Shown here: in pieces, positions 8,973 to 21,459 of the stretch
Numbering within the stretch: position 1 is the first letter of the stretch
Layout: each line of letters opens with the position of its first letter
Assembly: GCA_964010765.1 (NCBI GenBank)
Contig: CAXGMD010000060.1
Coordinates: 1 to 21,459 of the forward strand
Direction of reading: 5' to 3'
Source: an uncultured bacterium
GTDB taxonomy: Bacteria; SAR324; NAC60-12
DNA length: 21,459 nucleotides
The notes under the pieces: model-generated
Databases searched by the model: none
The model's input: the letters and a program-made list of their open reading frames with translations, nothing else
Told to the model about the DNA's origin: nothing
Made by a program: the position numbers and the translations under genes

Positions 8973-10784
8973 ATGCCCAATGACGACTTTCTGGCAGTTC
9001 TTGATTTTGGAAGCCAGTACGCCCACCTGATTGCCAAGCGAATCCGGCACTTCGGGGTCTATACCGAAATCTTTCCACCCTCTATTGATACAGACCGCCT
9101 TGAGGCTGCCAAGGGCATCATCCTTTCTGGAGGACCTGCTTCTGTCTTTGCTGAGGACGTGCCTGCCTTCAATCCAGAAATCCTCAACCTCTCTCAGCCC
9201 ACTCTTGGCCTCTGCTACGGCCACCAACTGATGGCCAAACATTTCGGTGGAAGTGTAGCCAACACGGGACAGGGAGAGTTCGGCAAAGCTTCTCTGCGTC
9301 AACTGAACCCTTCTCCCCTATGGAAAGATGTTGCCGACAACTCCCAGGTCTGGATGAGCCACCAGGATAGCGTCACGGAGCTTCCACAGGGTTTCCAGGT
9401 GATCGGTGAAACCATTGCAGGGAGCCTGGCTGCTCTGCAGCACAAGGAACGTCCGCTGTTTTCCCTGCAGTTTCATCCAGAAGTCACTGACACACTGGCA
9501 GGCACTCAGATTCTCAGCAATTTCGTGGAACTCTGCAAGGCACACCCTAGCTGGAGCATGGAACGCTTCATTGAGCAGACAAAGAATGAGCTTCAACAGC
9601 AAGTTGGTGAGCACAATGTGCTGATGTTCCTCAGTGGTGGCGTGGACTCTTCGGTTGCCTTTGCTTTGTTAAACGAAGCCCTAAGCAAGGAAAGGGTGCT
9701 CGGGCTCTTTATCGATAATGGCTTTCTACGTCTGAATGAGACTGAGCAAATTCTCCAACGCTACGAACAACTAGGTTATGACAATGTGGTTGGCAGAGAC
9801 TACAGCGAGGCTTTTCTGGAAGCAATCGCCGGTGAAGTGGACCCACAACGGAAACGACACCAGGTTGGCAACGCCTTTTTGGCAGTACGGGGAAAACTAC
9901 TGGAAGAATTAAAATTGAACCCGGGTGAATGGCTGCTCGGGCAGGGCACACTCTATCCGGACATCATCGAATCTGGAGGCACCGAACACGCCAAGGTGAT
10001 CAAGTCTCATCATAACCGAGTCGATGCAATCCAGGATTTGATTGCCAAGGGTCAAGTTGTTGAGCCACTCAAAGAACTCTACAAGGATGAGGTGCGACGC
10101 GTCGGGGACCTACTGGGTCTGCCCAAAGAAATCGTCTGGCGCCATCCGTTTCCTGGGCCGGGTCTTTCAATCAACGTCCTCTGTTCCCGTGAAGATACAA
10201 TCCTGCAACCCGAACACAAGAAAACACTGGACACACTGCACCAGTATCTACCACCCACTCAGGCTTCTCTACTTCCAGTACGCAGCGTAGGTGTACAGGG
10301 AGATCAACGAACCTACACAGAGCCGGCTGTGCTGCTCGGCCCAACAGACTGGGAATGGCTTGAGAACAATTCGATTCGACTGACCAATCAAGTACGTGCG
10401 ATCAATCGGGTCGTGGCCTATCTTCCTCTTCAACCAACAGAGCAGCTACCCAACTGGCGTGCCCGCCGTGCTTTCTGCGACAAGCCTCGTCTGGACTTGC
10501 TACGTGCTGCTGAGGCTCACGTCAGTGAAACCTTCGCCAATCATGGCTGGCTGGGGCGTATCTTTCAATTGCTGGTGATCCTGTTGCCGATTTCTCAGGA
10601 TGGTCACCAAGATAGCATCGTACTACGTCCGGTCATCTCTGAAGATGTAATGACTGCGCGCTTTGCCCCTGTGGACTGGCAGGTTCTCCATGAACTGTTG
10701 CCACAACTCTACGCTCTGGATGGAATTGACTCTGTCTTCTTCGATATCACTCACAAGCCTCCTGCTACGTTTGGGTGGGAGTAG
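8973..10784 (+). CDS. guaA: GMP synthase (glutamine-hydrolysing), long form
   Basis: LDFGSQY, IILSGGP, LGLCYGHQ (catalytic Cys), QFHPEV, SGGVDS, QGTLYPDIIES, IKSHHN, RHPFPGPGL, C-terminal DITHKPPATFGWE. Confidence 0.97.
   Translation: MPNDDFLAVLDFGSQYAHLIAKRIRHFGVYTEIFPPSIDTDRLEAAKGIILSGGPASVFAEDVPAFNPEILNLSQPTLGLCYGHQLMAKHFGGSVANTGQGEFGKASLRQLNPSPLWKDVADNSQVWMSHQDSVTELPQGFQVIGETIAGSLAALQHKERPLFSLQFHPEVTDTLAGTQILSNFVELCKAHPSWSMERFIEQTKNELQQQVGEHNVLMFLSGGVDSSVAFALLNEALSKERVLGLFIDNGFLRLNETEQILQRYEQLGYDNVVGRDYSEAFLEAIAGEVDPQRKRHQVGNAFLAVRGKLLEELKLNPGEWLLGQGTLYPDIIESGGTEHAKVIKSHHNRVDAIQDLIAKGQVVEPLKELYKDEVRRVGDLLGLPKEIVWRHPFPGPGLSINVLCSREDTILQPEHKKTLDTLHQYLPPTQASLLPVRSVGVQGDQRTYTEPAVLLGPTDWEWLENNSIRLTNQVRAINRVVAYLPLQPTEQLPNWRARRAFCDKPRLDLLRAAEAHVSETFANHGWLGRIFQLLVILLPISQDGHQDSIVLRPVISEDVMTARFAPVDWQVLHELLPQLYALDGIDSVFFDITHKPPATFGWE
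10772..10783 (+). repeat. attL core TGGGTGGGAGTA
   Basis: Identical to 14829-14840; encodes G-W-E and part of the guaA stop. Confidence 0.88.
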
Positions 10785-10947: not shown

Positions 10948-12186
10948 ATGCCACTCAAACGACAGCTCAGAGCATCAGAAATTCCCATCTTTGACAACGC
11001 CTATATCCATCAGCGTGGAGACTATTGGCAATTTCGTATGTGGTTGGAGCGAGAAGGCAAGTATGCACGTAAGAGTTTACGCACACGCAGTGAGGCAACT
11101 GCTGTAGAAAGAGCGCGGCAGATGTACTTGGAAATCTTTTCTAACCAACAACAAGGTAAAACCTATTTCAGTCTTACTGTCAAAGAAGGGGTTCAGAAGT
11201 ACTTGGAAGCCAGGAACGTTGATGTAGAACTAGGACTAATAGTACGTGATAGGTACGTCACCATACGCAGTCAGCTGAAGCATTGGTTAGATTTTATTGG
11301 GAAAGACAGCAAACTGAACGAGTTGGAAAGGACAGACTGTGAAGACTATTTCCAGTATCGCAACAAAAAACTAGAGGTACTGTCAAAAATTTAACTGTGC
11401 AGCATGAGCAGAGTACTATCAATGCGTGTGTAAGGTGGCTGAATAAAAAGGGAGAGACTCATATTGAAAGTTTTGACTTTAAAAAATTACCACGCATTGA
11501 CAGAGGCAACGAAGCAATACGCAGAGCAACACTAACAAATGAAGGATATGAAAGGCTGACTCGTGCGATGCGTTCATATTGTGCAAAAAAAAAACAATAA
11601 GAACGATGAATCAGAGATACTTCTGAGAAAACTAGTCCAACACTATGTATTGATTGCTTCAAATAGTGGATTGAGAGTTGGTGAGCAAATGCAACTGAAA
11701 TGGAGTGATGTAAAGGTTGAAGCACACAAAGACAAAACAGGCTAGCCTGTCAGGCTAGCCCACATTCATGTTCGTGCTGAAACTAGTAAGGTAAGGACAA
11801 GCAGAATTTTCTTGTGTCGCAATGGGCATTATTTCGAAAGATGGAAGGAGATTGCTGGACACGCAAATAAAAACGGTCTCATCTGTAGCGTGGATGGTGA
11901 GAAGCCAATTACTAAACGCCAGCTACTCTACCATTTCAAAAAAATGGTTGAACTAGCAGGAATACCAGATTTAAATGAGCGTGATATTGTCCCATATAGT
12001 TTACGGCACTTTATGATAACACAGAGGATTATGAGTGGCCTGAGCTACAGACAAGTTGCTGATATGTACGGGACAAGCGTGGCACAGATAGAAAGGACCT
12101 ATTACCATCTCAACGATGAAATCCGCCTTACCAATGCTGTCGCTGACTTCAGGCGACGTGAGGATGGGACGATTGAAGCCATCTAG
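10948..12186 (+). pseudogene. tyrosine recombinase/phage integrase, disrupted by 2 frameshifts and 1 nonsense codon
   Basis: ORF pieces 10888-11394, 11397-11600, 11563-11745 and 11812-12186 join into ~412 aa: N-terminal arm-binding-like region (WQFR..RKSLRT), SGLRVGE, SKVR, PYSLRH, GTS..QIERTYYH. Breaks at A6 11365-11370, A10 11585-11594 and TAG 11743-11745. Confidence 0.9.
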
Positions 12187-12194
12187 CGTCTATA

Positions 12195-12212
12195 AATCGT
12201 GTTAACACGATT
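12195..12212. repeat. 18-bp perfect palindrome AATCGTGTTAACACGATT, copy 1
   Basis: Self-complementary; 8 bp after the integrase stop. Confidence 0.95.
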
Positions 12213-12379
12213 CACTCCATCTCAACCCACCACTGCCCCAGATTCTGGCAATCCCATCAAATCAACAGAAGCTGTCCTGTAGTCTGCTGGATCAGACTCG
12301 CTGTCTCTGCTTGCACTCGCTTCCCCTTACTTCTAATTCTGCGATTCATCCAAACACCAGAAACCTGAAATAAGTGATA

Positions 12380-12427
12380 TTTTGGAGGATTACCCATATG
12401 TGTGGTACCAGCATCACCCAAATTGAG
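12380..12427 (+). pseudogene. short relic of a second, related tyrosine integrase (box II region)
   Basis: Translates FWRITHMCGTSITQIE versus YRQVADMYGTSVAQIE in the upstream integrase; 7/10 identical over the last ten residues. Confidence 0.55.
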
Positions 12428-12834
12428 TGGATGTGGCAAAGCAAGCAGCTTCAGGTAAGCAGAAGCGAGCTGATGTGGATGATGCTGCTAGATTACGGCA
12501 GCAGCGACAGCAGTTGGCGGCAGTTCAACCCAGTAAGCCGTTACCTGCACAACAATGATTTCAGAATGCTGTTCTGATTTGACTACAAATTGAACGATTT
12601 GAGTGGGGAACTTACCCAGCACATCTTTTCATCCGTCCAGCACAGCAGGCTATGCTGGAATCTCTTCAACTATTGTAGGAGCACTACTAGTACAGTTTTT
12701 TTGCTGAGAATCTATAGATTATTTAAGTATCTGTTCAAGATGGATGTTCAGCGCGTCTTCCTCCTCATTCATCGAAGTTATACTGTAATTGTTCAGACAG
12801 CACAGAAACAATATTGCCCTGATTGATTATCAGA

Positions 12835-13722
12835 CTAGCGCACGTTGCCAAAATTCATTAGCGGCAGGGGGGATGGACTGTCACCGTCCATAAAATATAT
12901 TTTGGATGCTGGATCTTTGGAAATAGCCTTCAATGCTTCCAATGCTTGGAGCTTTACATAATTGGGATTACTACCAATAGCACTATTGATCTTTTCAATT
13001 TCATAAGCCTGAGCGTCTGCAAGTACCCTCTTTTTCAGAGCTTGCTCTTCTGCAGCTTCACTTTCTGCTTTTGCTAGTGCGACTTTTTGCTGTTGCTCAG
13101 TTTTAAATCGCTCTAATTCTGCTTTTTGCTTCTCAACTTCTTGTTCCCTTTCTTTCTTAGATTCAATTGCTTTTATGATAAAAGGCGGGAGTGAAATATC
13201 ACGAATCAAGACTGCTCCTACATTCACTCCTTTTGGAATTAAGTAATCTTTGAGGCCTTCCAACAATGACGTTTGCATGTTCTGCTGAGTTTCTTCTAGA
13301 AAAAAGTCTTCAGCTCTTTTGATTGTTTTTCCTTGCTCTCGCAAAAGTGATCTCAATTTTGGAACAATATGAACACGAAGAACATCAGCAGCCTGCCCAG
13401 TTTCTTGTAAGATTTTAGGTGCATTTTGACTGCTCAATTGAAATTGAACACTCACTTGAATCTTTGTTTGGAGTTGATCCTGACTTGGCACATTAGCTTC
13501 TTCTAAGTGGGATTTCTGCCTGACGTCATAAAAATACCACTCATAGAATGGATTTACAGGAATATGTAGTCCTTCCTCATACGGATCTTCCTGTACCTCT
13601 CCAAAAAGAGTAGCCACTCCAACATATCCAGCTGGCACCTTTTGATACAGAGATGATGCAAACCAAACTAAAACAAGGCCAAAAAGACCTAATACTCCAA
13701 GTGAAGTTTTTAATTTATTCAT
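12835..13722 (-). CDS. SPFH/Band 7/prohibitin family membrane protein (island cargo)
   Basis: N-terminal TM anchor, VPAGYVGVATLFG...EGLH..NPF, SQDQL, VLIRDISLP...AIESK, AE-rich coiled coil; intact and visibly AT-rich. Confidence 0.9.
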   Translation of the reverse strand: MNKLKTSLGVLGLFGLVLVWFASSLYQKVPAGYVGVATLFGEVQEDPYEEGLHIPVNPFYEWYFYDVRQKSHLEEANVPSQDQLQTKIQVSVQFQLSSQNAPKILQETGQAADVLRVHIVPKLRSLLREQGKTIKRAEDFFLEETQQNMQTSLLEGLKDYLIPKGVNVGAVLIRDISLPPFIIKAIESKKEREQEVEKQKAELERFKTEQQQKVALAKAESEAAEEQALKKRVLADAQAYEIEKINSAIGSNPNYVKLQALEALKAISKDPASKIYFMDGDSPSPLPLMNFGNVR

Positions 13723-14013
13723 AAAGCCTCAATATAAAATGATTTAAAATAATCAGCACAACAAAATTATTTTTATATTTTTTAGTCTAATTGGATAAAT
13801 CAATTAAAATATAGCTAAAATTTTACTGCTTAATTATGGTATATCAAATTATATCAATTCACAACTTAAATATATTTTTTTGTATTATAAGCATTTTAAT
13901 TTTTAAAAAAATCTAGGGAAATATTTTTCCAAAATATAGCAGGTGAGATTCAGGCATTTTTCTGAAATATGGCATGCTTGTGCCATTATCTCTATTTGCA
14001 TTGTAACTTTATA

Positions 14014-14031
14014 AATCGTGTTAACACGATT
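14014..14031. repeat. 18-bp perfect palindrome, copy 2
   Basis: Identical to copy 1; identity extends to 24 bp (TATAAATCGTGTTAACACGATTCA at 12191-12214 and 14010-14033). Confidence 0.95.
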
Positions 14032-14176
14032 CAGTCGTTAATTGACGACTCCATCTTCTCAAAACACCTGTTCAACAAATCTTTTTCTTAATCCTCAATC
14101 TCTCAACTTACCGGTTGTCCATCTCCACCTATGACAGCAAGCTTGACTGTGAACACTTGCTAATAAGGAGGCAACC

Positions 14177-14639
14177 ATGCAACTGTTGAAATCACTCAAG
14201 CTCGTCCACTACGAGCACTCAACCCACCGTAATCCACGTCTACATCGCCGTCACAAGCTGCTAACCAAGTTGGATGAACAGCTCCAGCTTGCCAGAAACA
14301 TCTCCTATCAACCCACCAAAACCCAGTTCGTCGCTGATGCTGAAGGTAATATGCAACAGGTGCAACGTGCTAAACGCATCCGTCGTTGGTGGGCTACCAA
14401 AGCTGATGGCACCGTACAACTCACCATCCGTTATGGCAGTAAGCCACTGGAACTGGCGAAGGGTAAGAATGCCGTTGAAATAGCCAGTGAGGCAGAACTG
14501 AACTGGTTGGAACACTGGAGCAGATACGTGCGCTATGGAGCAGGGTGAACTGGATGAGCTGATTGAAGCTCAGACAGCTTGGCGAAATCGTGTTAACACG
14601 ATTAAGGCTGAGAAGCCTAAAATAGAGTTTGCTGATTGA
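14177..14639 (+). pseudogene. DUF6641-like mobile-element protein, frameshifted near the C-terminus
   Basis: LKSLKLV..NP...RR.KLL.KLDEQ.QLA..KRIRRWW....G...LTIRYGSKPLELAKGKNAVEI, with the expected ..GELD..IE tail present in another frame up to TGA 14637-14639; AAGGAGG RBS. Family name is from recall, not a search. Confidence 0.7.
14586..14603. repeat. 18-bp perfect palindrome, copy 3
   Basis: Identical 18-mer lying in the reconstructed 3' end of the DUF6641-like gene (reads NRVNTI). Confidence 0.95.
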
Positions 14640-14665
14640 CTTGGAAAAAAGTCCTATCTTGCTTA

Positions 14666-14800
14666 TTACACAGCGTGTAACTTATCTCAGCTAAACTATT
14701 GATTTAATTTTATATTATTTTATGAATATTACTGAAACTCTCACCCAATTTCTTTACAAAAGTTACACGCTTTAATTTTTTCTAATCTAGATAGTTGATT
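14666..14800. promoter_or_regulatory. putative attR arm region: arm-type repeats and IHF-like sites
   Basis: Perfect 12-bp inverted repeat AGCGTGTAACTT (14672-14683) / AAGTTACACGCT (14760-14771); TAAACTATTGATT (14692-14704) matches IHF consensus YAANNNNTTGATW; near match TAGATAGTTGATT (14788-14800). Confidence 0.6.
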
Positions 14801-14828
14801 TTAAACTATAATTAATATTTGTTACTAC

Positions 14829-14840
14829 TGGGTGGGAGTA
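14829..14840 (+). repeat. attR core TGGGTGGGAGTA (displaced original guaA 3' end, GGG TGG GAG TAA)
   Basis: Identical to 10772-10783 and followed by A, giving an in-frame TAA stop. Confidence 0.88.
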
Positions 14841-14872: not shown

Positions 14873-15502
14873 ATGCTTAATTTGGAAAATAATCATCCTA
14901 GCCGAGCCTCTATTTCATCACACACTCTCACTTCAAAGTTTCTGCATTGGAGTTTCACTCTCCTGTATGCCTATGGAATTTTGAAGCAAGTCAATGACAT
15001 TTCCCAACTGGAAGACACTACTCTGCTAGAATTTGAGGTAGTTTTCGCTATCGTCTTTCTGGCAATCGTGATTGTCCGCTACTTCTACATGAGAAGGTTT
15101 CCCACTTTGATCGGAGCTCCAGAGAATATTTCAAAAGCACATCTCTGGTTTGCGCGTTTCATTCATGTGGGCATGTACTTCAGTTTGGTGATGCTCCCAG
15201 TCTCAGGCCTGATGATCGCTTTTCTATTCTCCCTCGGTTTCAAGGATGGACTCCTGCAAGCCGCAGCAATGGGATTACATGATTTTTCTGCATCACTGAG
15301 TTACTGGCTCATTGGGATTCATATTCTGGCCGCAATTTATTCACGTTTGAAAGGAGAAAAGATTTGGCATGCAATGGTTCCATTTTGGATGGAAGACAGG
15401 ACAATCAAGATACCTGACAGCTTTGTAAAAATAGAATCATTCCTATTTCGTGCTTTAGAAAAAATTCTGAATTTAAATGGGAAAAAAGATGCGAAGGCAT
15501 GA
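14873..15502 (+). CDS. cytochrome b561 / cytochrome b-like membrane protein
   Basis: SKFLHW, FIHVGMY..LPVSG, LHD...IGIHILAA; four TM segments with heme-ligating-type histidines. Confidence 0.8.
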   Translation: MLNLENNHPSRASISSHTLTSKFLHWSFTLLYAYGILKQVNDISQLEDTTLLEFEVVFAIVFLAIVIVRYFYMRRFPTLIGAPENISKAHLWFARFIHVGMYFSLVMLPVSGLMIAFLFSLGFKDGLLQAAAMGLHDFSASLSYWLIGIHILAAIYSRLKGEKIWHAMVPFWMEDRTIKIPDSFVKIESFLFRALEKILNLNGKKDAKA

Positions 15503-15652
15503 TAGCTATCCAACACAATTCAGGATTTCACCTTTTCCTGGCTAGATCTCAGAAATCATTTTTGTTGAAGAAAACTACAGAGGGTATATTTAGTGGATTA
15601 TCCGATTCTGAGTGTCTGAACTACGACGGATAAATTCTGTCTTTAGAGGTTT

Positions 15653-15868
15653 ATGTTCTTTGCTGTATTTACCCAAAAGCAACCCGATATCCCATTGCGC
15701 GTCTACGAAACCTTTGACGCTGCTAGTTCTGTTCTCACCAAACTGAAAAACGCTGGCAAGAGCGCGTGGGTTACTGAATTAGACCTGCATCTCCTGAGTC
15801 ACTATACCAATACAATTTACACGGAACTACGGGAAATCTTCGACTACGCCAGGTTTGAGAAATTCTGA
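15653..15868 (+). CDS. small hypothetical protein
   Basis: 71 aa, GAGGT RBS immediately upstream, protein-like composition. Confidence 0.5.
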   Translation: MFFAVFTQKQPDIPLRVYETFDAASSVLTKLKNAGKSAWVTELDLHLLSHYTNTIYTELREIFDYARFEKF

Positions 15869-15923: not shown

Positions 15924-15941
15924 AATCGCTATAACACGATT
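15924..15941. repeat. degenerate copy of the 18-bp palindrome (AATCGctaTAACACGATT)
   Basis: 15/18 identity; flanking G/C extend the symmetry. Confidence 0.55.
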
Positions 15942-16140
15942 CGAATTCAGTAAGCGCGGCCGTTCGTCGCATCTGGTTATCGCTCATGTCGATATAGTGC
16001 TGGCTTGTCTCAACACGAATACGCACTACCACCTACCACCTCAACTAGTCATCACGCCGAGGTCTCCCTCATCTTAGTTTGGCTGACTACCTTCATCTTT
16101 CGCTTTAACTGTCTACTCTGGCTAGGCAACCTCGACACAA

Positions 16141-17226
16141 TCATTGATTCTTGGTCTCCTGCTCCAAAAGCTTCTGCTTGCGTTCGATACCCCACTTGTA
16201 CCCTGCCAGATCACCAGATCCACGAATTACTCGGTGACACGGGACCAGGATTGCCAAACGATTAGAAGCGCAAGCGCTGGCCACAGCACGGGCGGCCTTG
16301 GGTTGCCCGAGGGACTGGGCGAGTTGGGTGTAGCTTACCGTTTCTCCAGATGGAATCTCGGTCAAGGCCCGCCACACCTTTTCCTGAAAGACCGTGCCTC
16401 GAATATCCAAGGGAAGCTTTGTATCGCTTGACTGTCTTCGATGGGGATCATCAATCTGGGCCACCACCTCAGATATCCATTCTTGCCAATCTTCCTCTGC
16501 TTCTTGCAACTCTGCAGAGGGAAAGTTTGCCTCCAGTATGCCCAAGACTTCTTCTTTCTCTGCAAACTCGACCAAACAGATTCCACGATCGGTTGTGGCA
16601 ATCAGAATACTTCCAAGGCTTGTTTCGCGGTGTGCATAATGAATTGTTTCTCCCTGAGCCCCTTTCTTGTGTTTGCTTGGCATCAGTCCTGGTGTGGTGT
16701 TGTCAGCATAAGCTCGTGATGGGCTATCGTAACCAGCTTCATAAATTGTTTGGGTAACATTCTTTGAAGATTTCAATTCATTGCGGAAGCGCTGTTTCCG
16801 TAACGCCATCGCATACTGTTTTGGAGACAAGCCAACCTGTGCCTTGAATACACGCTGGAAATGACCCGGGCTGAGACCTGCTGATGCTGCCAATCTGGCT
16901 AGATCAAGCTTTGCTTCTGCCAACTCGATTGATTGGCAAGCCTGAGCGATGGCTTTGCTATGCGATGACGATTCTACTTGATCGGGTTTGCAGCGTTTAC
17001 AAGCTCTATAGCCCGCAGCCTGTGCCTGGGTTGGTGTGTCGTGAAACGAAACATTTTCCCGATTGGCTCTTCGGGAAGTGCAGCTAGGATGACAGTACAC
17101 ACCTGTCGTACGCACTGCGAAAACGAAGATGCCATCCCATGCTTGGTCCCGACTACAAACGGCTTGCCAGCGTTGCTCATCGATCTCTTTGGAATCGTTC
17201 CTCTCTCTTTCTTCATTTTGCTGCAT
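16141..17226 (-). CDS. ada: bifunctional transcriptional activator / O6-methylguanine-DNA methyltransferase Ada
   Basis: Zn site VRTTGVYCHPSC..RACKRC, AraC-type HTH (AGLSPGHFQRVFK), C-terminal GTVFQEKVW and PCHRV active site. Confidence 0.95.
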   Translation of the reverse strand: MQQNEERERNDSKEIDEQRWQAVCSRDQAWDGIFVFAVRTTGVYCHPSCTSRRANRENVSFHDTPTQAQAAGYRACKRCKPDQVESSSHSKAIAQACQSIELAEAKLDLARLAASAGLSPGHFQRVFKAQVGLSPKQYAMALRKQRFRNELKSSKNVTQTIYEAGYDSPSRAYADNTTPGLMPSKHKKGAQGETIHYAHRETSLGSILIATTDRGICLVEFAEKEEVLGILEANFPSAELQEAEEDWQEWISEVVAQIDDPHRRQSSDTKLPLDIRGTVFQEKVWRALTEIPSGETVSYTQLAQSLGQPKAARAVASACASNRLAILVPCHRVIRGSGDLAGYKWGIERKQKLLEQETKNQ

Positions 17227-17227
17227 A

Positions 17228-18172
17228 TCACGACTCTCGTATAGCCCAAAGCACCTTTAATTGCTTCCAGGGACGACCATCAACCGCTGCCATACCTGCA
17301 CCGATCAAAGACATTCCCACTAAATGTTTCGGCAGTAGACTCTCATCTAGAAAAGCAATTCCCAGCAGAATGGCGCTGATTGGTATCAGGAAGGTAACCA
17401 ACAACAAGTTTGTGGCTCCAGCTGTGGCCAAGATTCGGAAATAGAGAATGTATGCTAAGGCTGTCGACAAAACAGCAATCCCTACAAGAGAGGCAATGGC
17501 AGCTACGCTTGGCATTGGCAAAGTCCATGGTTGCTCAACCAAGATCACCATCGGTACAAGAAACAAACTAGAGGCGGTTACCTGCCCTGTTGCTGTGACT
17601 ATCGGCGACACACCCATCGCTTTGAATCTACGCCCAAAGATGCCAGCGAAAGCATAAGAGAGTGCTGCACAAAGAATTGCTACATGTGCCAATAGATTTG
17701 CACTTATCCCTGCAAGCACATCAATGCCTATCATAGTGAAGACTCCCAGAAAACCAATAACAACCCCTAAAAAACGACTACCATTCAATTTTTCATCCGA
17801 GGTCATAAAATGCGCAACTACTACTGTGAATAGAGGTGTCATCGCATTGAGAATTGAGGCAACACCAGAGGCAACTTGTGTCTGTCCCCAAACAATCAAA
17901 CTGAATGGCACGACGTTGTTCAACATTCCCATCCCACCGAACGCGATCCAAATTCTTGGATTCCTAGGGAACTGTTGACCTGTGACTCTCATCACCAGTA
18001 AGAGTGCTATAGATGCTAAGGCGACCCGACCAACCACAATGGTGAAAGTTGGCAGTTCCCTGACTGCTACACCGTTGAAAAAGAATGAGCCACCCCAAAG
18101 AATGGAAAGAGCTAACAGCAACCCCCATTCATGAAAATTCATAGCAGTATTGATGGTTGGCTTTGCAGACAT
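17228..18172 (-). CDS. DMT/EamA family transporter
   Basis: LLLALSILWGGSF, NVVPFSLI..GQ..SG.ASILNA.TPLF, STALAYILYF...GATN; ~10 TM; likely start ATG 18172 with AGGTG RBS. Confidence 0.9.
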   Translation of the reverse strand: MSAKPTINTAMNFHEWGLLLALSILWGGSFFFNGVAVRELPTFTIVVGRVALASIALLLVMRVTGQQFPRNPRIWIAFGGMGMLNNVVPFSLIVWGQTQVASGVASILNAMTPLFTVVVAHFMTSDEKLNGSRFLGVVIGFLGVFTMIGIDVLAGISANLLAHVAILCAALSYAFAGIFGRRFKAMGVSPIVTATGQVTASSLFLVPMVILVEQPWTLPMPSVAAIASLVGIAVLSTALAYILYFRILATAGATNLLLVTFLIPISAILLGIAFLDESLLPKHLVGMSLIGAGMAAVDGRPWKQLKVLWAIRES

Positions 18173-18243
18173 GAGTTCACCTACTGATAAAGCATATTGG
18201 TTAGGTGAAGTATTCCCTTGGCTATCAAGAAAAACATCCCGTT

Positions 18244-18258
18244 TCTTGCGATTCAATT
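18244..18258 (-). promoter_or_regulatory. Ada box (AAT-N6-GCAA)
   Basis: Minus strand reads AATTGAATCGCAAGA, matching the A-box/B-box arrangement of the E. coli ada promoter (AATTAAAGCGCAAGA); upstream of eamA-ada. Confidence 0.7.
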
Positions 18259-18316
18259 CGAAAAGTTAGCTTGGAGGTTGAAGTAGTCAGAGTTTGAAAA
18301 AGTCTTGGTACAATAG

Positions 18317-18348
18317 TGCCTTTGAATTGACCACAATGCCTTTGAATT
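18317..18348. repeat. tandem direct repeat TGCCTTTGAATT x2 (20-bp period), candidate activator sites
   Basis: Copies at 18317-18328 and 18337-18348 in the divergent intergenic region. Confidence 0.6.
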
Positions 18349-18416
18349 ACTCACGACCTCGAACGAATTTCTTATATTCTTATTTTTTAATTTAAAAATA
18401 TCAGTTATTTGAATGA

Positions 18417-18432
18417 TGGCATACTGAGTGCT
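18417..18432 (+). promoter_or_regulatory. putative sigma54 (-24/-12) promoter
   Basis: TGGCATACTGAGTGCT has GG-N10-GC spacing; IHF-like TATCAGTTATTTG at 18399-18411 with an AT tract upstream. Confidence 0.6.
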
Positions 18433-18464
18433 GCTTAATGCTTCGGTTTAAAGGGGAGATGACA

Positions 18465-19142
18465 GTGGAATTACGCTTTTTTGAAATTTATCGCAGTCCT
18501 GAATATCTGCTGCTGTTGGCAGAAGGGATTCTGACTAGCGCTGTACTCACAATCTCAGCTGGTATGATAGGCTTTGTCTTGGCGACCCTGCTGGCCAGTG
18601 CCCGTCATCACAGCTGGCCAGTCCTAGGGCAACTATCAGCGGCCTTCATAGAATTTATTCGCAACACACCGCTTATCGTCCAGCTCTTCTTTGTTGCTTT
18701 TGGACTACCCTTGCTTCTTGGCTACCAGTGGGCATTTTGGGCCCATGCACTTTTGGCGCTGATCATCAACTTCTCGGCCTACTTTGCAGAAATACTGCGC
18801 TCCGGCTTCCTCAGCGTTCCCATTGGACAGCTTGAAGCAGCAAAGACTCTGGGGGTTCCAAGTTTCATAGCATTTTGGAAAATTCTCCTACCTCAGGCGA
18901 TCGCCACAATGTATCCCTCCCTGAGCAGTCAATTTATTTTTCTCTTTCTAACGACGGGAGTGATTGCCGAAATCGGGGTGCGTGATCTGACGTTTGCAGG
19001 CTTATTCATAGACAGTCGAAGTTTCCGATCTTTCGAGGTCTTTTTCACTCTCACAATCCTCTACATTGTGATGGCTCTCTCATTCAAAGGGATTCTTCGG
19101 TTGGTATTCATCAAAAAATTTTCATGGTGGTCAGCACCATGA
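18465..19142 (+). CDS. polar amino acid ABC transporter permease
   Basis: FIEFIRNTPLIVQLFF, SAYFAEILRSG, GQLEAAKTLG (EAA loop); start GTG 18465 or ATG 18459 after GGGGAG. Confidence 0.92.
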   Translation: MELRFFEIYRSPEYLLLLAEGILTSAVLTISAGMIGFVLATLLASARHHSWPVLGQLSAAFIEFIRNTPLIVQLFFVAFGLPLLLGYQWAFWAHALLALIINFSAYFAEILRSGFLSVPIGQLEAAKTLGVPSFIAFWKILLPQAIATMYPSLSSQFIFLFLTTGVIAEIGVRDLTFAGLFIDSRSFRSFEVFFTLTILYIVMALSFKGILRLVFIKKFSWWSAP

Positions 19143-19846
19143 AAGAAATCTTTGTATCCGTCTTTGGCAAGCCCTTTGGGATCGTACTTTTCCAATTACT
19201 AGAAGCGACCCAATTTACTATTTACCTCTCGCTGTTTGCCTTCTTCGGAGGTGGGGCAATTGGGATAGTCATTGCCCTGCTTCGCATCTACCCATCACAA
19301 AAATCAAGGGCTGGAGCGGTAGCCTACATTTGGCTCTTCCAATCAGTGCCTCTGCTGATGCTCTTGTTTCTTTTTGGCCTCGGAATACCACGACTGTTCG
19401 GCCAAAATGTAGATCCCTGGATTGCAGCAATTGGAGCTTTGACTCTCTACACATCTGCCTACCTCGCTGATGTCTGGCGAGGCTCGGTAGAGGCCGTACC
19501 AAAAGGTCAATGGGAAGGAGCACGAGCGCTGGGATTGGGATTCTTCAAGACTCTGCAACTAGTGATCGCTCCGCAGGCAATCCGCAACACCCTCGCCCCA
19601 ACAGTTGGCTTCATGGTGCAAATCATTAAAGGCACCTCCCTAGCCTTTATCATCGGTTTTCATGATCTGATGAGTGTTGGGAAACGCTGGGCCAATGCCC
19701 CAGTTAATGGTACCGAACCCTTCGTTATTTTTCCCCTAATGGCATTGATCTACTTTTGCCTTTGTTTTCCGCTCTCAGCATTTTCGAAGCAGCTGGAGCG
19801 CAAATTCGGAAGTGTTTCCAAGCAAGACCTTCCGACTGCCGTGTGA
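19139..19846 (+). CDS. polar amino acid ABC transporter permease
   Basis: FQSVPLLMLLF, SAYLADVWRG, GQWEGARALG, IKGTSLA; ATGA overlap with the previous gene. Confidence 0.92.
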   Translation: MKEIFVSVFGKPFGIVLFQLLEATQFTIYLSLFAFFGGGAIGIVIALLRIYPSQKSRAGAVAYIWLFQSVPLLMLLFLFGLGIPRLFGQNVDPWIAAIGALTLYTSAYLADVWRGSVEAVPKGQWEGARALGLGFFKTLQLVIAPQAIRNTLAPTVGFMVQIIKGTSLAFIIGFHDLMSVGKRWANAPVNGTEPFVIFPLMALIYFCLCFPLSAFSKQLERKFGSVSKQDLPTAV

Positions 19847-19889
19847 CTCCTAGGGAGTGCACTTATTTTCTTAACATCATCCGGAGAAC

Positions 19890-20696
19890 ATGATGCTCAA
19901 GCAAATCTTTAAAAAGTGGTCGCTCAGCCTGTCAATGATACTTGTATTGTTGATGACAATGGCCGCAACACCAGCGGTGGCAGAACTGCCAGACATTCTG
20001 AAATCAGGAAAAATCCGCATCGCAGTCCCTGAAAACTTTCCGCCTTTCGGATCATTAGGTGAGGAAGGAGAGTATGTGGGCTATGACGTAGAGATTGCAC
20101 AAATGATCGCTGACGATTTAGGAGTTGAACTGGAACTAGTTCCAGTGACATCAAAACAAAGGATCCCCTTCTTGGAGACCGATCGAGTTGATCTGGTGGT
20201 TTCGGTTATGGGGGCCAATCCTGAGAGAGCCAAGTCGATCTGGTTTTCTAGTGCCTACGCTCCATTTTATTCCGGAGCTTTTGCCAAGCCAGACGTCGAA
20301 TTGGATTCTGTGAAAGGATTCTCAGGGAAAAAGGTGGGAGTGACCGGTGGAACACTGGAAGACTTGGCGATCAGCGCAAATGCTCCTGCAGACGCTGAGA
20401 TCATCCGTTTCGGCGACAACGCAGCTACCATTTCCGCTTATGTATCAGGTCAGACTGACGTGATTGTCACAGGGAATATGGCTGCACTAGAGATCTCCAA
20501 AAACAATCCTGATTTTAATCTGGAAACCAAATTTATCATTGCCAACTCCCCTTGCTATATTGGGGTGAAGAGCGGAAATCTGGATCTACTGCAGTGGGTC
20601 AATGTCTTCATCTTGCACAAAAAGCTGAACGGGAAACTGAATGAACTCTCTTTGAAATGGCTGGAGCAACCTCTTCCCGAACTTCCTACCCTCTGA
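19890..20696 (+). CDS. polar amino acid ABC transporter substrate-binding protein (family 3)
   Basis: Signal peptide, FPPFG, GYDVEIA, RIPFL, NPERAKSIWFS..Y; GGAGA RBS. Confidence 0.92.
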   Translation: MMLKQIFKKWSLSLSMILVLLMTMAATPAVAELPDILKSGKIRIAVPENFPPFGSLGEEGEYVGYDVEIAQMIADDLGVELELVPVTSKQRIPFLETDRVDLVVSVMGANPERAKSIWFSSAYAPFYSGAFAKPDVELDSVKGFSGKKVGVTGGTLEDLAISANAPADAEIIRFGDNAATISAYVSGQTDVIVTGNMAALEISKNNPDFNLETKFIIANSPCYIGVKSGNLDLLQWVNVFILHKKLNGKLNELSLKWLEQPLPELPTL

Positions 20697-20708
20697 CACA
20701 CTCCTAAC

Positions 20709-20739
20709 GAAGCCTCGATTCATCAGGAGTCGTGGCTTC
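20709..20739 (+). terminator. stem-loop after the ABC operon, possible terminator
   Basis: GAAGCC-T-CGATTC / GAGTCG-T-GGCTTC pairing; only a weak U-tract (AAAGTTTCTT). Confidence 0.4.
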
Positions 20740-21022
20740 AAAGTTTCTTGAAAGCACCGTCTGAAATTACATCGGGACAATTCACTCCTACACCAGCTTC
20801 ACTTTCCATCACATCCGGGCACTGCCCATGTTAGTGTTGCGCTAGGCTAACCGAATACAGTGCATCCTGCTCCTACCAGCAGTAACAACCGACACAACGC
20901 CTTTGCACTAGTTCCGTTAATCCAGTCCACAACCAAAGAATAAGCATCTTGCCTGCTCTTCATGGGGCAGATAAATTTTAGTAAAAGTATTTCAGTCATT
21001 CTTACCCTTCGACTCTACCAAC

Positions 21023-21459
21023 ATGTACCTCCCTCCCCATTTTGAAGAAACTGATCCTAGCCAGGTTTATGAGCTGATTGATAAGTTTCCTCTGGCAATT
21101 TTGGTAGCGCAAACTGAACAAGGCCTAGTAGCCAATCACATCCCACTGATGCTTCAAGAGAAGCAGGAGTTGCTTGGTCACCTTGCAAAGAACAACGACC
21201 TCCATCAACTTCTTCCGTCTGGTAAGGAAATTCTTGCTATCTTTCGGGGAGAGGATGCCTACATTTCACCAAACTGGTATCCCACAAAGCCTATTCATCA
21301 CAGGCACGTACCGACCTGGAACTATCAGGTAGTGCACGTTTATGGCACGATCCACTACCAAGATGATGACAAATTCAAGCTGGCCGTTGTTGGTAAGCTG
21401 ACAAAGAAGATGGAAGAGCGAACCCATGTTGAGAATGCCTGGCGGATGGCCGATGCGCC
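21023..21459 (+). CDS. PaiB-family FMN-binding protein ('negative transcriptional regulator'), truncated by window end
   Basis: Not in the ORF track; manual translation gives MYLPPHFEE..FPLAILV..ANHIP..GHLAKNN..FRGEDAYISPNWYP..VPTWNYQVVHVYG. Confidence 0.88.
   Translation, partial: MYLPPHFEETDPSQVYELIDKFPLAILVAQTEQGLVANHIPLMLQEKQELLGHLAKNNDLHQLLPSGKEILAIFRGEDAYISPNWYPTKPIHHRHVPTWNYQVVHVYGTIHYQDDDKFKLAVVGKLTKKMEERTHVENAWRMADA

Follow-up and report, generated by a model that had tools for sequence, protein, structure and literature searches.

The window, that is, the whole stretch of 21,459 nucleotides analysed here, carries an island at the 3′ end of guaA, where a tyrosine integrase lies beside a duplicated guaA 3′ end. 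An 18-bp palindrome, AATCGTGTTAACACGATT (P below), occurs exactly at 12195-12212, 14014-14031 and 14586-14603. The island and the DNA next to it contain the following features.

8973..10784, plus strand: guaA (GMP synthase), the host target gene; Pfam GATase and GMP_synt_C
10772..10783, plus strand: attL core, a 12-bp direct repeat overlapping the guaA stop
10948..12186, plus strand: large tyrosine integrase B, a pseudogene matching the L099 copy at 1203 of 1239 bases
12195..12212: P1 (site 1), 8 bases past the integrase stop
12213..12427, minus strand: relic, a decayed 3′ end of S fused to an integrase 3′-end fragment
12428..12558, plus strand: backbone gene X, a 3′ remnant after deletion
12835..13722, minus strand: SPFH/Band 7 cargo gene, with P on both sides in L058
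14014..14031: P2 (site 2), 145 bases upstream of DUF6641
14177..14639, plus strand: gene D (DUF6641); this assembly has a frameshift at 14495-14531
14586..14603: P3 (site 3), read through in frame by the D tail, 225 bases inside attR
14604..14828: right arm of the element
14829..14840, plus strand: attR core, a copy of the attL core
14873..15868, plus strand: cytochrome b561 gene and 71-aa gene, cargo belonging to an older element at this site; in L202 it is bounded by P
15924..15941: P4, decayed, with 3 mismatches
15942..16032, minus strand: second relic of the S 3′ end, pointing at P4

The attL core is also found at tandem- or circle-type junctions in L137, L195, L199 and L205, where it joins the right arm to the integrase, and the junction of an empty guaA site appeared as a loose end in run X17. 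This 12-bp repeat at the guaA end, and not P, is the attachment site of the island; its arms differ from those of P.

B in the window is disrupted by 1-bp indels near 11367 and 11585 and a premature stop at 11743-11745. Intact B of 413 aa is encoded in L048, L061, L083 and L099, and intact D of 152 aa in L058, L062 and L063. The D frameshift is an allele carried by this assembly, L035 and L055, absent from the X5, X10 and X17 contigs, and mixed in X3. The relic at 12213-12427 is the first 215 bp of a 315-325 bp P-to-P mini-module that is present in 15 intervals. It ends at a deletion joint (12427/12428), across which S, DUF6626, most of X and several P copies are gone. A supposed second breakpoint hotspot at 12427 is really this one deletion. 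The window island is a dead deletion derivative that has lost S but kept its seams; S, deleted from the window apart from the two relics, could not be recognised from the window alone. Because P4 lies beside an S relic, element-derived DNA reaches about 1.2 kb past attR.

A preliminary description of this DNA had reported three exact copies of a perfect palindrome, and this is borne out at 12195, 14014 and 14586; four matches at ≤3 mismatches occurred in none of 100 shuffled windows. Its statement that the window holds no further exact copy is correct; the decayed P4 at 15924 is now added. The gene order it gave stands overall, but the stretch from P1 to P2 is not clean cargo, being composed of the S/integrase relic, the deletion joint, the X tail and the SPFH gene. 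Its boundaries are revised, with att cores at 10772-10783 and 14829-14840 and element-derived DNA past attR. It had also argued that P stayed unmutated between two broken genes; B is indeed broken, but the D frameshift is only an allele, which weakens the argument.

After the island relics, the window (16141-21459) contains Ada, a DMT-family transporter and an amino-acid ABC transporter. In L071, where the arrangement differs, Ada adjoins cytochrome b561 and island cargo; the block may thus represent accessory DNA of an older date. Incidentally, contigs of RNA run X17 cover the SPFH gene (12835-13722) and the 71-aa gene (15653-15868) and not the surroundings of P2, although contigs give neither level nor strand.

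P is a seam between modules

In the 3.86-Mb genome (G000), P occurs five times exactly, once at two mismatches and three times at three, with an order-5 Markov expectation of 2e-5 per genome. The other two exact copies and the two-mismatch copy lie in a second island on contig C50. Genome-wide scatter, the alternative raised in the preliminary description, is thereby refuted, as the five exact copies fall in two islands only. The second island (L001:2096-5700) lies between a transporter gene and a soluble transhydrogenase-like gene, and contains only relics and a P-bounded membrane SpoIIE-domain gene.

In its own genus, P has 21 matches at ≤2 mismatches in six of nine genomes (control pattern 0; 88 genomes of the class), while the other 79 genomes of the class give 9 matches versus 13 for the control. 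The three genomes of the genus in which it is missing include two with 93-94% completeness. The 12-base core has 21 matches in the genus, 17 of which are inside mapped elements, and the control pattern gives 9. In 596 billion bases of sequenced genomes, exact P was found at 8 loci against about 9 by chance, two of them with element genes; viral contigs gave no exact P and seven variant matches, none with element genes.

Scanning metagenomes for exact P yielded 116 stretches. In L026-L139, 129 of 163 exact sites are ≤250 bases from a match to B, S or D. P is specific to the islands and co-occurs with DUF6641 and tyrosine recombinases, in support of the preliminary description. P typically stands 8-12 bases past B stops, 5 past S stops and 12-20 past several cargo stops. 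In L072/L128 and L103, it lies in frame inside an intact gene without a seam. Outside the close lineage there are 16 distinct P loci, 9 with genes of the same family and 7 without, which look like chance. In the 9 divergent family loci, where one locus group may count under more than one gene, P is past B, S or D in five, in the arm or near DUF6626 in L027, L029 and L050, and within an intact gene in L072/L128 and L103 as just described; in L050 an exact P lies upstream of DUF6626, where relatives have S.

Approached through proteins instead, P or its core was found past 4 of 13 B, 2 of 10 S and 8 of 10 DUF6641 gene ends, in a set that includes our own genome and loci also found through P. Many family members thus lack P, and P does not define the element class. 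The undescribed class proposed earlier holds in that the family was not found in the literature searched, but not with P as its defining mark. The 10-base core turns up five times (0.06 expected) in 48 kb of elements chosen by criteria other than P, three times at D ends and twice inside an HUH-like gene.

Two further occurrences are recorded here. L002, a contig labelled Bacteroidota, carries modules near-identical to those of L098 and SAR324 islands, from misbinning or transfer. An exact P also lies over the stop of a gene that by eye resembles one for a eukaryotic light-harvesting protein, in L033, L037, L041, L043, L070, L092 and L125, a group counted as one chance locus.

Breakpoints were analysed in 102 loci, from which non-lineage loci and duplicate contigs had been removed by hand. 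As the loci were fetched by exact P and include many near-identical strains, the counts describe a pattern rather than independent trials. Among 971 breakpoint clusters, 212 are ≤25 nt from P (3.6% expected), and 151 of the 164 P sites with flanks are homology breakpoints in related contigs, which supports the earlier suggestion that P marks cargo breakpoints. In contigs sharing one flank, identity falls from 0.83 at the last P base to 0.50 at the next base and to ~0.3 by ten bases. The 176 sites sort into 57 junction types, of which 24 recur in at least two contigs and 33 were seen once. The S end and one B end have 15 different partners each.

Between neighbouring copies, 88 P-to-P intervals fall into 33 types, of which about 17 are cargo modules bounded by P on both sides (a script gave 19 cargo-only types; three doubtful ones, L114, L046 and L087, were dropped and the SpoIIE module was added). 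The modules are 0.35-3.3 kb long with 24-39% GC, compared with 46% for the genome, and include SPFH, DUF1611 plus racemase, sulfatase and cytochrome b561. Sites 1 and 2 have a single P when empty and P-cargo-P when filled, and site 3 also has several partners. Site 1 (the B-S gap) is empty in L074, L079 and L113, and site 2 (the X-D gap) in L118 and L142; in the filled site 2 of L065 only 20 bases are repeated. Variant half-sites remain attached to the flank they belong to, and the exchange of partners falls inside the 10-12 central bases (L045, L074, L093). P is a seam where cargo is joined into a family of islands of marine SAR324 bacteria, common to divergent elements.

Not every exchange falls on the seam. 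Different cargos often have 5-140 bases beyond P in common, which indicates that many swaps occurred near P and not at P. The B-S gap takes cargo also in P-less elements (L197, L200), so the breakpoint statistic is inflated. One B end type joins S-type ends only (22 sites) and never cargo, suggesting that simple deletion between neighbouring P copies is uncommon.

Orientation is strict. All 67 adjacent backbone pairs keep polarity across P, the junction graph is bipartite without self-joints, and none of four cargo genes (9, 11, 11 and 17 hits) is inverted, while different cargos face either way. P is therefore not a freely shuffling symmetric site. Nor does it look like a hairpin: compensated changes number 0 among 61 changed base pairs in the SAR324 lineage loci, and no palindrome or stem extension beyond chance was found in the flanks, so it is the sequence that counts. 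The sole compensated variant is in another genus (L014), 60 bases past an S gene. Conservation stops 2-3 bases outside the 18-mer. P was not called by a terminator scan and has no Rfam match, and host avoidance of its 10-base core was not significant (0.6 expected).

Element family and the candidate enzyme at P

Fuller relatives of the window island show the backbone att, B (forward), site 1, S (reverse), DUF6626 and X (both forward), site 2, DUF6641 (forward), site 3, arm, att. Some also have an HUH-like gene on the same strand as S, between S and DUF6626. Such genes lie upstream of S in L073, L195, L196 and L197, with a weak Pfam REP_ORF2-G2P match in L196 only (E 3e-4). In the Rep-like gene of L195 (6119-6610) and L197 (5654-6145), the P core encodes part of the HUH motif region.

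S is a small recombinase of 189 aa that matches only the catalytic domain of XerA/XerD and has no core-binding domain. Residues R42, K73, H139, H165 and Y174 are invariant and R142 nearly so. The catalytic-domain-only recombinase family including S has 2760 proteins at E below 1e-20. Most tyrosine recombinases also carry a core-binding domain, according to the available part of 10.1101/542381. The characterised tyrosine-family enzymes without one (MobK, TcpM, MpsA) are relaxases in the available part of PMC8152469, and MpsA needs a separate 98-aa helical protein, MpsB (PMC8152469, PMC6414798, likewise in part).

The partner proteins of S were modelled. The DUF6641 model (pLDDT 83) had no structural match (best Z 4.9), and the single-sequence model of DUF6626 (pLDDT 79) had a best Z of 7.7, unspecific; a DNA-binding fold is neither shown nor excluded for either. 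Co-folding of S with DUF6626 was uninformative (score 0.00). Atlas searches yielded nothing beyond DUF6641 clusters and weak, unnamed clusters. The family has its main hosts among the Proteobacteria. None of 301 genomes from another taxonomic order contained S, and apart from L149 and L150 no close family member was found among plasmids, phages and viral contigs. S-like catalytic-domain-only recombinases with 29-44% identity occur in Legionella, Burkholderia and Azospirillum plasmids and in large Caulobacter phages; P was not found after the S homologs of plasmids (four copies checked) or of L140 and L149. Other genes seen among the relatives include a proteorhodopsin-like gene (Pfam Bac_rhodopsin, L198:8740-9435), between two DUF6641 genes and beside a 3-mismatch P, and small site-2 proteins (L073:1549-1773, L197:7130-7345) that presumably resemble H-NS/MvaT, by eye and without Pfam support.

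In the reading we favour, S would nick and join DNA at P, like a MOB_M relaxase or a resolvase. B would integrate the whole element at the guaA 3′ end via its own att. S has a full catalytic set and lacks a core-binding domain; it would open and reseal DNA at P, probably cutting one strand at a time as a MOB_M relaxase does and probably with a separate DNA-binding partner, DUF6641 or DUF6626. P-bounded pieces would be released or inserted without inversion in place, and new cargo would enter at P-like sites, or the interior of a module would be replaced. As the att core of B has arms different from P, the large integrase is an unlikely actor there, and a second enzyme would be the simpler owner of P. 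Nicking and joining of single strands without in-place inversion would also fit the observed polarity.

Breakpoints at P, ends with many partners, P-bounded low-GC cargo, half-site swaps and the catalytic set speak for S. Counted against it are that P lies past only 2 of 10 S genes and mostly downstream of S, while the regions upstream of four P-associated S genes that are intact contain no P at up to 5 mismatches; that P co-occurs best with D and is tolerated inside some genes; and that no P-to-P joints were found in the contigs of four runs compared with the window, from which S is absent. We therefore give action of S at P a probability of about one half. The fuller proposal makes P the core of an undescribed cassette system, in which a relaxase-like S, given its specificity by DUF6641 or DUF6626 as a separate subunit, would take up, release and insert genes at a single symmetric 18-bp site; it is tentative and on balance rather doubtful.

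The main rival is serious, though less likely. DUF6641, DUF6626 or some other protein of the element could bind P as an operator, an arm-type site or an organising site, retained where backbone blocks end. Cargo would then be exchanged through homologous recombination of the conserved flanks and through illegitimate joining close to P, with no crossover enzyme at P. The best co-occurrence of P is with DUF6641 (8 of 10), and the in-frame copies inside genes, the strict polarity and the common bases of cargos beyond P all suit a bound protein, as does the 7-4-7 geometry, which we take to resemble an 18-bp repressor operator. Such a site leaves unexplained why ~17 unrelated cargos have P at both ends versus one P at empty sites, and why half-sites swap inside the core; moreover, most copies are at 3′ ends and not at promoters. 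Much less probable is that the HUH-like protein nicks P as its replication or transfer origin, with modules arising by rolling-circle release between copies. Strand-specific release would likewise yield no inversions, HUH-like genes lie upstream of S in the four loci named above, and the P core is inside the gene in L195 and L197. However, no such ORF is present in the arrays richest in P (L040, L044, L055, L062), and the compensatory changes expected of a hairpin origin are absent.

Perfect symmetry, a size within 18-22 bp and a position past stop codons would suit a fully symmetric four-strand recombination site, a natural loxPsym with free deletion and inversion. This reading, already disfavoured, is the least probable in view of the kept polarity, the four cargo genes that never flip, and the bipartite graph without self-joints. 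It also seems improbable that P serves the host as a regulator box, dif or terminator, or that the seams are assembly chimeras at a short repeat, even though contigs break at P1 in read assemblies and 33 of the 57 junction types were seen once. A host site is at odds with the absence of P from three same-genus genomes and from G000 outside the two islands, and with the lack of a terminator call or Rfam match. Chimeras at a palindrome should give opposite-polarity joins, of which none was seen, and 24 junction types recur across contigs.

The loading and swapping of genes in marine islands are mostly credited to homologous recombination. With a defined 18-bp seam, a candidate enzyme and intact natural copies of all parts, the question becomes testable. 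If the reading with S at P is true, it would provide a first function for the catalytic-domain-only recombinase family, DUF6641 and DUF6626, and the cassette system would be a platform for gene capture in nature that differs from integrons and dif modules, and would offer a minimal tool for site-specific integration.

Comparison with known systems

The islands resemble integrons in having low-GC modules of one to three genes arrayed next to a tyrosine recombinase gene, with a site often just past the stop. Compared with these, the P islands have no IntI and no attC hairpins, each module brings its own upstream region, different cargos point either way, and a single invariant palindrome serves as the site. 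An integron was ruled out by the IntI profile (TIGR02249 scores of 16-41 bits against a cut-off of 265) together with the uncompensated base pairs and the lack of an Rfam match. A symmetric inversion system of the lox or shufflon type was also rejected, as backbone pairs are concordant throughout and cargo does not flip.

GIsul2, another guaA island, shares with the window island a tyrosine integrase, the guaA 3′ end, a GTGGGA-containing core, and tandem and internal att copies (PMC9376610, as far as available). The internal sites of GIsul2 are att copies; here a second, unrelated palindrome partitions the interior.

Islands with MOB_M relaxases (SGI1 MpsA/MpsB, pIGRK MobK, pCW3 TcpM) share with this family an integrase and a tyrosine-family enzyme without core-binding domain, and in our elements too a catalytic-domain-only enzyme lies near an integrase (PMC8152469, PMC6414798, bioRxiv 10.64898/2026.01.13.699239, in their available parts). 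According to that preprint, 96% of MOB_M relaxases are near an integrase, and MOB_M oriTs are sought upstream of the relaxase. DUF6626, a nearby helical protein of ~100 aa, can be likened to MpsB by size and helix content only. On the other hand, S has 189 aa and no extra domain, unlike the MOB_M relaxases, and the oriTs are single 125-186 bp regions with several repeats, near or upstream of the relaxase, whereas the 18-bp P occurs in multiple copies, most of them downstream of genes. A cargo-cassette role for MOB_M oriTs was not found in the available part of that literature. Integration at a short target by a relaxase has a precedent in TrwC, which integrates DNA into a 17-bp target (PMC3264647, available in part).

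No paper with DUF6641, DUF6626, DUF6538 or the 18-mer was found in a search whose coverage largely leaves out subscription journals, and no gene-swapping system of this kind was found described in the literature searched.

The closest parallel is with the pdif/XerCD modules of Acinetobacter plasmids, in which few-kb cargo is bounded by short sites, forms arrays and is exchanged singly between backbones (PMC13141974, in its available part). P-bounded modules likewise recur in different contexts. The pdif sites have distinct 11-bp XerC and XerD arms around a 6-bp spacer, use host enzymes, reside on plasmids and undergo inversions, whereas P is symmetric, not asymmetric, shorter, unlike any sequence in the pdif table of that source, and chromosomal, with no inversion seen. 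That P is missing from well-assembled congeners also argues against a host dif. The P system works most like dif modules while falling outside the definition of their site.
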